A stretch of 64,000 nt of DNA from the IMG/VR virus record IMGVR_UViG_2681813318_000003; one strand, 5' to 3'. This DNA is from a virus (lineage: Duplodnaviria; Heunggongvirae; Uroviricota; Caudoviricetes). Positions 39,329 through 41,135 of the stretch are shown piece after piece. The stretch's first letter is position 1. Every line of letters begins with the position of its first letter. The notes beneath the pieces are model-generated. The model searched no databases. It saw only the letters and a list, made by a program, of their open reading frames with translations, and had not been told where the DNA came from. A program made the position numbers and the translations under genes.

Positions 39329-39715
39329 ATGTCTGATAACAAGATTGAATTTATAGAAAGTCGCTACGCTGCTTTTATCGCAGGGTTGATTGAATCCTCA
39401 CCTATGAGCCAGGCCCAGATAGCCAAAACAATTGGGTATAAAAACGCCAACAACCTTTCTTTAATTAAAAGCGGCAAAATTCCTTTGCCTATCGATAAGG
39501 TTCGTCCGCTGGCGCTGGCACTGGGTATTGAGCCAAGTCGTCTTATGATGATGGTGCTGGAAGAACGCCAACCCGAACTCGCAGCATTTTTATACAAAGA
39601 AGGCACTGCTCCTCTTAACGAGGACGAAAAACAGGTTCTTGCTGCATATAACGAGCGATTCGGTAAAGAGAAAGGCGCATCACAAAAGGTTGTTGAGGCC
39701 ATAAAGTCTCTATGA
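39329..39715 (+). CDS. XRE-family helix-turn-helix transcriptional regulator
   Basis: SQAQIAKTIGYKNANNLSLIKSG...LALALGIEPSRL HTH signature; AAAGG RBS. Confidence 0.7.
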   Translation: MSDNKIEFIESRYAAFIAGLIESSPMSQAQIAKTIGYKNANNLSLIKSGKIPLPIDKVRPLALALGIEPSRLMMMVLEERQPELAAFLYKEGTAPLNEDEKQVLAAYNERFGKEKGASQKVVEAIKSL

Positions 39716-40813
39716 AAAATTTACACGAATAAGCTCTGTTGATAGACGATCTCCCTTAAATTTGTGGTCAATTTCGTCTAAATCCGGTTGCTCTACGATT
39801 GATGCGATGTACGTCGAGAAACTTTCTAAGGCGTCTCGCATCTCGTCCATATAATCGTGCCGGTCGTAGACCCGATCTATCCCCTCAAGACTGTGGTTCA
39901 TGATTTTACGTGATACCTCCTGGCTTATGCCTAATGCTGGGAAGTAACTACGCGCAGTACGGCGCAAATCTCGGGGTGTAAATGGCTCAAGCTCCATCAG
40001 TTCTGGTCGTTCCAGAATACGACGTAATGCCTGGGCTATTGCCACTTTAGACATAGGAAGGTCTTTCCCGATTTTTTTATTCGAAGGCACGAGCCACTGG
40101 CTGTCTTTACCGTATTCGAACAACTCTTCAATGCATGTGCGCATTAATGTGCTTAAAGGCAGCGAATGCTCACGTGCTGACTTGTTTCTCTTGCCTTGAT
40201 TCCAAACCCCACGCTTAAGATTGAACTCACTTTTTTTAGCCCGCAGTACTTCGTCAGGTCGTCTTGCTGATACAAGACACAGTCTGGCCGCCCATTTTGT
40301 ACCAGCGCACACATTGAAGTAGTCCCATATATTCCAGAACACCCATACCTCTGCGTCAGTCAGCTTCCGCTCGCGGGGCGTGGGCTTTGCGCCACCGGCA
40401 ACTTTGTTAAGTGACATATCGTTTAACGGTGACACGTCTATCATCCCCTGGAAGGCGCACCAGCTAAGGAACTGCTTCATCAGAGAGAAAACGCGGCGGC
40501 CCATAACAATTTTGCCATCCAGTATTAGTGGGTTGACCAGTTGGTTCACCATGAACCTATTAATGTCACTTACTTTTACATCGGCAATGTGCGGCAAAAC
40601 ATGTATCAAAATACAATGAACAGCGATCTCTGGCCGACGTCTGGTTATCAGCAGAGATAAGCGAGTGAATAACAGGAATGCGTCCGAGAATCTCATGTCA
40701 TTGCTGACCTGGGAGATCATAACGGCCTGCATTTGAGATGCTCTTTCGAGATACTCTATCGCCTCTTTTGAGGTGTTCTCCGCAGCGCGTGCTCTGTCAA
40801 AGCTATTTTTCAT
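39710..40813 (-). CDS. tyrosine site-specific recombinase / integrase
   Basis: Catalytic-domain pattern: ARR (box I), RDLRRTARS, NHS and a tyrosine in RVYDRHDY near the C-terminus. Confidence 0.8.
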   Translation of the reverse strand: MKNSFDRARAAENTSKEAIEYLERASQMQAVMISQVSNDMRFSDAFLLFTRLSLLITRRRPEIAVHCILIHVLPHIADVKVSDINRFMVNQLVNPLILDGKIVMGRRVFSLMKQFLSWCAFQGMIDVSPLNDMSLNKVAGGAKPTPRERKLTDAEVWVFWNIWDYFNVCAGTKWAARLCLVSARRPDEVLRAKKSEFNLKRGVWNQGKRNKSAREHSLPLSTLMRTCIEELFEYGKDSQWLVPSNKKIGKDLPMSKVAIAQALRRILERPELMELEPFTPRDLRRTARSYFPALGISQEVSRKIMNHSLEGIDRVYDRHDYMDEMRDALESFSTYIASIVEQPDLDEIDHKFKGDRLSTELIRVNFS

Positions 40814-40911
40814 ATGACAATCACCGAGTTACGCCGATGCACTGTATAAGTAAACAGTATATTAGGCATAGATTCTTATAGGATCAAGAGTAAAAGTAAC
40901 TCATTTTCAGC

Positions 40912-40944
40912 AATGATTCCATACATAGTAGGTATGGAATCATT
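40912..40944. repeat. inverted repeat AATGATTCCATAC-(7 bp)-GTATGGAATCATT, a candidate recombinase core site
   Basis: Perfect 13-bp arms with a 7-bp spacer, ~100 bp upstream of the recombinase gene; a partial third copy at 40949-40959. Confidence 0.55.
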
Positions 40945-41135
40945 TAAGGTATGGAATTTAAATTCTGTAATATTAGAGGGGCATTACTTCGGAAATCGTG
41001 AACCTTTACATGTGAGGATTATTGTTCTATTTTTGCTGGGACACGTCGTAGCGCCGCCGGGATTATTAGGCTCGATATTGAGATTTTGAGCAGAGAGTAG
41101 GTTAAGAAGAGGCAATGACCGCTATTGCTTTCAGA

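Follow-up and report, generated by a model that had tools for sequence, protein, structure and literature searches.

The described systems that come closest to the locus treated here are Cre/loxP of phage P1, XerCD with dif, cer and psi, the integrases of the lambda and P4/CP4-57 types with their attP sites, the Rci/sfx shufflon of IncI plasmids, the integron (IntI/attI/attC) and the recombinase-fold proteins MrpR/YopR (SPbeta) and SroF (phi3T). The locus consists of a 33-bp inverted repeat (positions 40912-40944) and an adjacent tyrosine recombinase gene (39710-40813, minus strand, 367 amino acids, aa; here called int) in a 64,000-nucleotide stretch of a virus of the class Caudoviricetes (IMG/VR record IMGVR_UViG_2681813318_000003), referred to below as the window. 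We suggest that the repeat is very probably the recombinase's own site, and that the two probably form a plasmid multimer-resolution module that would work like Cre/loxP without kinship to Cre.

Cre, a single tyrosine recombinase of 343 aa, is similar in size to the 367-aa protein, and loxP resembles the 33-bp site in its 13-bp inverted repeat, its short, A/T-rich and asymmetric spacer, its place near the gene and its occurrence once per phage-plasmid; dimer resolution, and possibly cyclisation, is the role expected of both. The spacer, however, is 7 bp here and 8 bp in loxP, the arm sequences are unrelated, and the recombinase matches the Cre fold at E = 0.016 compared with 5e-7 for lambda Int, with no sequence match in the PDB. 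We know of no counterpart in Cre/loxP to the flanking element and the dispersed single arms described below. XerCD/dif and cer/psi share the proposed function and the arrangement of two inverted binding sites round a central region, and the conserved sequence beside the core site could be the counterpart of the accessory sequences of cer and psi. Unlike XerCD/dif, the locus has one plasmid-encoded enzyme instead of two host enzymes, identical arms instead of XerC and XerD halves, and a 13-7-13 geometry instead of 11-6(8)-11; its core sequence is unrelated to dif. A sequence-only reading of the window had paired the repeat with loxP and dif; the recombinase itself falls on the lambda/P4 side, not with Cre or Xer.

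The P4/CP4-57- and lambda-type integrases are the closest by profile and fold, and the C-terminal H307...Y316 motif round the catalytic tyrosine is shared with them. In contrast to these integrases, the recombinase has no PF13356 domain, its site is a perfectly symmetric core where theirs combine an imperfect core and arm sites, integration into a chromosome was not observed in E. coli, and the family occurs on many plasmid types. Rci/sfx likewise combines a tyrosine recombinase, a 7-bp spacer and several sites with one conserved arm; unlike the shufflon, no inversion or deletion between copies was found in any of 148 loci, and the single copies here are embedded in essential phage genes, so that an exchange between them would be destructive. 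Inversion between single arms in the manner of a shufflon was rejected, no rearranged genome having been seen. MrpR/YopR and SroF are recombinase-fold proteins that bind several scattered phage sites; they differ in that they are weak fold matches and that the catalytic residues are conserved in the recombinase studied here. The integron, an array of cassettes that each end in an attC hairpin, differs too, as the island beside the repeat holds neither further full or partial sites nor repeated hairpin sites.

The module is an uncharacterised, widespread system of a conventional kind. Our analysis provides a likely function and an exact 33-bp site for the "site-specific integrase" of about 950 Enterobacterales plasmids, whose carriers include Yersinia pestis pMT1, Salmonella, SSU5-like phage-plasmids of E. 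coli and Klebsiella, and large Pantoea and Rahnella plasmids. The Salmonella records with the gene in PLSDB are presumably pHCM2-like plasmids. The single arms and a sharp boundary of cargo DNA lift the module above routine annotation.

The probable 33-bp core site and its linkage to int

The sequence-only reading had described a perfect 13-bp inverted repeat with a 7-bp gap about 100 bp upstream of a recombinase gene, and this was borne out: the site, to which no strand is assigned, consists of the left arm AATGATTCCATAC (40912-40924), the spacer ATAGTAG (40925-40931) and the right arm GTATGGAATCATT (40932-40944), and its inner edge lies 98 bp upstream of the ATG of the 367-aa open reading frame (ORF). 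As a whole it is a near-palindrome of 33 bp with 16-nt arms, one mismatch and one central base. The repeat is not a chance sequence. The exact 13-mer occurs five times in the window, compared with about 0.002 expected for a random 13-mer by our arithmetic, and the 9-mer GTATGGAAT six times, compared with 0.49 in shuffled sequences, none of 100 of which reached six; as single-stranded DNA the repeat forms a hairpin with a folding energy z of -6.4. A partial third copy (GTATGGAAT at 40949-40957, plus strand) had also been reported and did not survive comparison. Relatives with the same flank type read TAAGGGAGGAATTT, TAAGGGCGGAAATTT or TAAGGTCGGAAATTT at this place, so the likeness is peculiar to this window and probably due to chance; an FRT-like third arm was rejected, as the copy is not conserved.

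In 148 loci the core site is conserved beside int, and its arms covary with the clade of the recombinase. Scanning IMG/VR for both arms with any 7-bp spacer, a search that fixes arm identity, returned 80 contigs; 79 contain the exact site together with an integrase match, and each of these has the repeat 44-100 bp upstream of the gene. Protein identity across these contigs is 59-100%, the spacer varies by clade, and the arms found by this exact-arm search stay identical even at 59% protein identity. The gene was detected by tblastn on 950 PLSDB plasmids, including homologues of 47-52% identity on non-phage plasmids, three of which were inspected: Photorhabdus pPAU1 (29 kb), Pantoea pPANA10 (302 kb) and a Rahnella plasmid (549 kb). 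In all three, a repeat whose arms measure at least 10 bp and flank a 7-bp spacer precedes the annotated start by 80-90 bp. The Pantoea site reads TGTGACTCCAGAC-TTAACAG-GTCTGGAGTCACA; arms of this type equal the arm of the window at 9 of 13 positions, and at the remaining four both arms have changed symmetrically.

A search with one genome per species gave 61 loci, 60 of them (60 species) with a full-length gene, and in every one of the 60 the gene is preceded by an inverted repeat of 11-17 bp around a 7-bp spacer. The arms are perfect in 55 and have one mismatch in the other five; for one of the 55 perfect-arm sites the top score came with a 9-bp spacer, and it amounts to a 7-bp site in which one arm position is imperfect. 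Over the IMG/VR contigs and the species homologues together, the distance between repeat and gene is 44-250 bp, and the repeat was also found upstream of the gene in pMT1 and in Klebsiella plasmids.

The arm classes track the recombinase clades. The phage-plasmid class has GTATGGAATCA(TT), the Klebsiella clade (58% identical protein) has GTATGGAATCACA, ending in ...CACA and not ...CATT, and the plasmid class (45-53% identity) has GTCTGGAGTCA(CA) with the geometry kept; an intermediate arm, GTATGGAGTCACA, occurs as well. Both arms change together in all but a few sites. Judged from these sequence comparisons, the linkage and covariation form the pattern expected of a recombinase and a co-evolving binding site. 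The sequence-only reading of the repeat as a recombinase core site is supported by the linkage in all 60 full-length homologues and by the symmetric change of the arms from GTATGGAATCA to GTCTGGAGTCA; homologues without an adjacent repeat, named there as the observation that would count against it, are the opposite of what the 79 contigs and 60 homologues show. The arms provide two natural 13-7-13 specificity classes, which, if orthogonal, could be developed into Cre/lox-like tools.

The spacer is 7 bp long in all 148 sites (148 loci) and occurs in 16 variants (75% A/T, consensus TTAATAG), 12 of which keep an asymmetry of the ends, T...G or C...A on opposite strands. This asymmetry suits a crossover region with unlike ends; a symmetric dimeric repressor would not need it. 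Both orientations of the spacer relative to int occur, even in near-identical genomes with identical flanks (CTACTAT in locus L002, ATAGTAG in L037). Because the arms are identical, such flips are expected to be neutral for resolution; they possibly arise via template switching at the palindrome, or by aborted misaligned exchange and mismatch correction. Half-flipped spacers, for instance TTATTAG, occur, and flips were noted for L039 and for the plasmid-class loci L095-L150.

A semi-conserved flanking element, GGAATTTAAATTCTGTA (40953-40969, plus strand), lies on the side of the core away from int and was detected in the flank alignments of both arm classes. Its consensus is approximately an A/T run followed by GAAATCTGAG, 17-26 bp from the arm; the conserved part, ...AAATTCTG(A/T) at about 40960-40969, is present in distant plasmid homologues too, and cargo DNA starts just past it. 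By its conservation in both classes the element may be an accessory part of the functional site. Integration host factor (IHF) was considered as its ligand and rejected, as no convincing consensus match was seen by eye.

In 38 near-identical loci the 60 bp that separate int from the repeat are polymorphic only at -1, -2 and -4 from the left arm, which they abut (six variants), and the first bases past the right arm (40945-40953) vary as well among otherwise alike flanks. The edges of the palindrome (40907-40911 and 40945-40953) are a mutation hotspot or under diversifying selection.

The recombinase

The PF00589 match, the catalytic residues and the fold confirm that the adjacent gene encodes a tyrosine recombinase, as had been read from the sequence. 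The product of ORF 39710-40813 matches PF00589 (Phage_integrase, E = 4.6e-10, 40 bits at a cut-off of 27.1), PF22022 (integrase central domain, 1.2e-4) and the phrog_1 integrase family (3.7e-47). Among 48 homologues with identity down to 25%, R185, K211, R284 and Y316 are invariant and H307 is present in at least 90%; all five catalytic residues are invariant in a five-sequence alignment. Because these residues are conserved, the recombinase is probably still an active enzyme.

The AlphaFold2 model (predicted local distance difference test score, pLDDT, 86.3) has an all-helical N-terminal part and a catalytic domain. The best PDB fold match detected by Foldseek was lambda Int bound to a core site (E = 4.8e-7, TM 0.60, 310 columns); Tn1549 Int, XerA, XerH and IntI were matched as well, and MrpR, YopR and SroF were listed weakly (E = 1e-3 to 5e-3). 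A PDB sequence search gave no match at E <= 0.01 and the fold match to Cre is weak, so the recombinase does not belong to the Cre family. No PF13356 or other arm-binding domain was detected by Pfam, and the closest sequence profile, NCBIfam PRK09692, was matched far under its cut-off.

Multimer resolution as the probable function

The region is 97-99% identical to SSU5-group Escherichia phage-plasmids, namely phage Cyrano (pLF82), PhiR41_1 and about 325 PLSDB plasmids, and the window aligns with Cyrano at about 23.5-85.7 kb. Both a Rep3-type RepA (23043-24257, plus strand) and a ParA-like ATPase (55982-56650, minus strand) are encoded, so the replicon with repA and parA assumed in the sequence-only reading is correct. 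For such a replicon we infer binding, cleavage and resolution steps in which one recombinase monomer would bind each 13-bp arm, and cleavage and strand exchange would proceed across the A/T-rich, slightly asymmetric 7-bp spacer. The main job would be the conversion of dimers formed by homologous recombination into monomers, as Cre/loxP does for P1, with the circularisation of infecting phage DNA as a possible extra job. The module would be self-contained and would move between unrelated plasmid backbones.

Resolution is favoured because there is one site per replicon, the module sits on plasmids of varied kinds, int is expressed in lysogens and the repeat lies outside the candidate core promoter. 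We found one full site in the whole 108-kb Cyrano genome and one per locus in the 148 loci. In 5,426 complete E. coli genomes, all 268 places are on plasmids and none on chromosomes, in a search that is blind to an attB shorter than about 25 nt (our estimate of BLAST sensitivity), and the module occurs on plasmids of very different kinds. Plasmids with two sites were considered as evidence of insertion or dimers and rejected: the records with two places reflect the palindrome matching itself on both strands. In Cyrano lysogens (plasmid state) int is expressed at about 49.5 units, compared with 8-20 for its phage neighbours (PMC9928086, S1 table).

The candidate int promoter (40859-40887, minus strand) has a -35 hexamer TTGATC (40887-40882), a 17-nt spacer and a -10 hexamer TAATAT (40864-40859). 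It was read by eye, with 8 of 12 consensus positions, which is under the threshold of the consensus scan, so it is not in the scan list; in the aligned flanks of diverged clades both hexamers stand out as conserved islands. With this promoter the repeat would lie at about -60 to -92 of the likely int start, outside the core promoter.

Several observations weigh against a Cre-like resolution module. The position of the first catalytic His is occupied by Arg (R281), leaving five of the six R-K-H-R-H/W-Y residues canonical, and the Foldseek match to Cre is weak (E = 0.016-0.05). By fold and sequence the recombinase groups with lambda/P4-type integrases, and the outgroup proteins (<=34% identity) have the P4-type arm-binding domain PF13356; this kinship, together with PF13356 in the next relatives, makes an integrative past likely and an integrative present possible. 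No recombination product, whether two sites or a dimer, was seen in any genome, and no description of the site was found in the searchable literature. Simple Cre-like resolution would have no need of the conserved flanking element or of the single arms conserved elsewhere in the genome, and resolving dimers may not be the module's only task.

The two 13-mer arm words likewise gave no literature match, only shorter 10-mers being matched, in unrelated papers. The family is sharply bounded, identity dropping from about 44% to at most 34% in the outgroup proteins; on account of this boundary and of PF13356 being found only in the outgroup, the recombinase seems to have branched off from P4-type integrases, lost their arm-binding domain and come to use a simple symmetric site.

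The cargo island and the alternatives of capture and integration

The site marks the exact edge of an accessory island, which in the plague plasmid contains the F1 capsule genes and in E. coli contains toxin-antitoxin genes or highly expressed morons. In the window the variable cargo island spans 40970-42200 (no strand assigned), a stretch over which the number of related loci that cover it drops from 77-81 to 1-7. At 40944-40967 the homology shared with about 325 related plasmids and four phages comes to an end, with one megablast class ending at 40967, and at least 15 unrelated sequences were found past the site in otherwise near-identical backbones. The search for the site at junctions in related genomes, proposed with the sequence-only reading, was thus positive. 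Accessory genes are preferentially located in the DNA past the site, on the side opposite the gene.

In the window this place is taken by a YafO-family toxin gene (41136-41552, minus strand, Pfam YafO_toxin 1.7e-20) and an overlapping upstream ORF for a partner of 182 aa (41543-42091, minus strand); the YafO module (41136-42091) looks like toxin-antitoxin cargo and is common to about 7 of 80 related loci. PADLOC and Pfam searches of the neighbouring cargo ORFs detected only YafO and glutaredoxin. The cargo of Cyrano is CYRAN_43 (L001, locus 5782-6336), its top-expressed moron, at 723x the prophage background in lysogens (PMC9928086), so the slot beside the site can be very strongly expressed. 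In PhiR41_1 the cargo starts with a gene noted as "HTH-type transcriptional regulator gadW" (HTH, helix-turn-helix), followed by a large ORF. In Y. pestis pMT1 (L090, NZ_CP009841.1, locus 14113-19904) it is the caf1R-caf1M-caf1A-caf1 F1-capsule operon. About 630 bp separate the end of caf1 from the repeat there, and a G+C-rich hairpin with a T run about 60 nt from the repeat looks like the caf1 terminator.

The alternative that fares best, and is still improbable in our judgement, is a platform for cargo capture, loosely like integron attI, at which the recombinase would insert circular DNA into the repeat. The end of homology of about 325 plasmids at, or at most 25 bp from, the right arm suits this alternative, as do the 15 or more unrelated flanks among near-identical backbones and the range of cargo, from toxin-antitoxin modules to a regulator gene and the pMT1 caf1 operon. 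Only one full site is present per replicon, however, and neither a second full site nor a recognisable hybrid site was found bounding the cargo; no arm-like sequence was detected at the other boundary of the island (about 42200) either. A second variable island (42640-44000) has no site, and ordinary accessory-region mosaicism would therefore suffice. This second island is filled by a 445-aa ORF (42682-44019, plus strand), shared by about 2 of 80 related loci and without a Pfam or PADLOC match.

The repeat could also be an attP-type site served by a true integrase, through which the phage-plasmid or the module enters a chromosome or another replicon at a matching site. We consider this unlikely, although the closest folds belong to lambda Int and Tn1549 Int, both integrases, the P4-type arm-binding domain occurs in the nearest outgroup proteins and the database name of the recombinase is "site-specific integrase". 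No place was found on any of the 5,426 E. coli chromosomes, an attB shorter than about 25 nt being beyond the search, and a chromosomal attB was rejected as a candidate for E. coli. All 148 sites are intact, unsplit and beside int, no arm-binding domain was detected in the recombinase, and the perfectly symmetric arms are unlike typical attP cores. Of the two functions put forward by the sequence-only reading, resolution is the more probable and is favoured over integration.

Single arms elsewhere in the genome

We detected single arms that share a 16-nt word, GATGTATGGAATCATT, at three further places in the window (exact 13-mer at 34880, minus strand, and at 45047 and 46059, plus strand). The first (34880-34895, minus strand) lies in the ORF for a dnaE-like alpha subunit of DNA polymerase III, where it codes for ...C-M-E-S-L...; it is exact in 70 of 72 loci, with a GGT variant in the other two, and comprises 14 consecutive invariant columns including third codon positions, which vary in the flank. 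The second (45044-45059, plus strand) is intergenic, about 190 bp from tRNA-Asn. In the ...CACA clade this copy likewise reads GTATGGAATCACA; it follows the repeat arms, and a shared binding partner is therefore indicated. The third (46056-46071, plus strand) overlaps the stop of a 71-aa ORF and the start of a 50-aa ORF, covering the first codons (M-I-P-Y-I) of the latter, which is membrane-like (45918-46070, minus strand); the majority frequency is 0.98 in the motif compared with 0.81 in the flanks (17 distinct sequences). A further single arm, GTTTGGAATCAAG, lies inside int (40195-40207, minus strand) in decayed form; clades whose recombinases are 82-88% and 58% identical have it as an exact 14-mer, GATGTATGGAATCA.

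The 108 kb of Cyrano contain the dnaE, tRNA-adjacent and small-ORF single arms and no others. Their positions and orientations are constant in all loci examined, and they keep their places in diverged clades despite differing flanks; none were found within 7 kb of the plasmid-class homologues. Copies left of the repeat have one orientation and those right of it the other, each being a direct repeat of the nearest arm. This mirror orientation is only suggestive, as chance would give it at about 1/8 to 1/16 with three to four sites (our arithmetic). A Tus/Ter, KOPS-like or fork-trap reading was dropped for the same statistical weakness of the pattern, and the single arms bear no resemblance to Ter.

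Only SSU5 and one contig are without the int module (n = 2), and the deletion looks recent; both keep the dnaE arm. In SSU5, which lacks the whole module, two copies are exact and the tRNA-adjacent copy has one substitution. Salmonella phage SSU5 (L166, JQ965645.1, locus 16405-16570) is without the HTH gene, int, the repeat, cargo, glutaredoxin and most tRNAs; its tRNA-Asn directly follows a cobT-like gene, and the deletion endpoints lie off the arm sequences.

Single arms in essential phage genes point to a selection at the DNA or RNA level overlaid on the coding sequence, which is the surprising part of our results. Binding by recombinase monomers is one reading that may be considered, with MrpR/YopR/SroF as precedent, and RNA-RNA pairing is the other. 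We tentatively propose that in the phage-plasmid lineage the single arms might have been recruited as a small set of oriented sites, either with the recombinase taking on a second function as DNA-binding regulator or architectural protein of the replication region, or through RNA pairing that restrains dnaE in lysogeny. If true, one 16-nt word would tie plasmid maintenance to the control of phage replication.

The single arms are also relevant to the hypothesis of an operator, in which a dimeric regulator, either the neighbouring HTH protein or the recombinase acting purely by binding DNA, would occupy the palindrome to control int and/or cargo, the single arms being more operators. Such a function would fit a near-perfect palindrome, the position of the site between int and the highly expressed CYRAN_43 in Cyrano, the resemblance of dispersed conserved copies to scattered operators, and the presence of the recombinase-fold phage master repressors MrpR, YopR and SroF among the fold matches. 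The HTH protein (128 aa, 39329-39715, plus strand) is encoded convergently with int with a 6-bp overlap and matches Pfam HTH_19 (7.8e-4, under the curated cut-off) and phrog_8 (1.3e-11). Its Cyrano counterpart is annotated as a putative repressor, and a homologue (49% identity) neighbours int in Photorhabdus pPAU1 too.

In the Pantoea and Rahnella plasmids, though, no HTH homologue was found within 6 kb of int and the repeat is present, so the repeat goes with the recombinase. The catalytic residues are kept family-wide, and MrpR/YopR-type repressors are not known to have kept theirs. The repeat lies upstream of the likely int promoter and not over it, the fixed 7-bp spacer and its end asymmetry would be needless for a symmetric dimeric repressor, and transcription of the adjacent cargo of the window runs towards the site, which leaves no divergent promoter for a regulator to act on. 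We therefore regard an operator as a doubtful alternative to the probable resolution site.

Least of all do we expect a purely RNA-based role, in which the palindrome would be a transcript hairpin and AAUGAUUCCAUACAUC in the tRNA-leader and small-ORF transcripts would pair with GAUGUAUGGAAUCAUU in dnaE mRNA, a network damping phage replication genes in lysogeny: the transcribed (minus) strand does have one sense upstream of the repeat and the exact 16-nt complement downstream, the single copies do share a conserved 3-nt extension (GAT) that is absent from the repeat, and the tRNA region is transcribed in lysogens, but the same repeat stands beside int on plasmids without single copies, no Rfam family, terminator or promoter was predicted at the repeat or the single arms, and a shared protein explains equally well why the covarying copy tracks the repeat arms.

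Further features of the region

The tRNA cluster (44199-44852, minus strand) comprises Ser(tga), Thr(tgt), Tyr(gta) and Asn(gtt); Cyrano is without the Tyr gene and has other spacing, so the cluster itself is mosaic. Between the cluster and the small ORFs, about 530 bp (45100-45630, minus strand) have no convincing ORF and are conserved across clades; with sub-threshold Rfam tmRNA matches (21.7 and 17.3 bits), they may encode a structured RNA.

The RepA region (23029-24837) has no megablast match to Cyrano, though both flanks match: the Rep3-type replicon allele of this phage-plasmid is a different one. Inside a 702-aa CobT/vWA-like ORF (36658-38766, minus strand), an acidic Ser/Asp-rich low-complexity stretch was observed at 37600-38100, where the count of relatives covering it falls from about 45 loci to about 23, which marks the segment as hypervariable. 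In E. coli pSJC33-2 (L165, locus 4638-14267), a gene for an HNH endonuclease and a piece of dnaE come after dnaE, and the gene for the RecA-like protein carries the annotation LAGLIDADG homing endonuclease; these replication and recombination genes look like they have intein or homing-endonuclease insertions.

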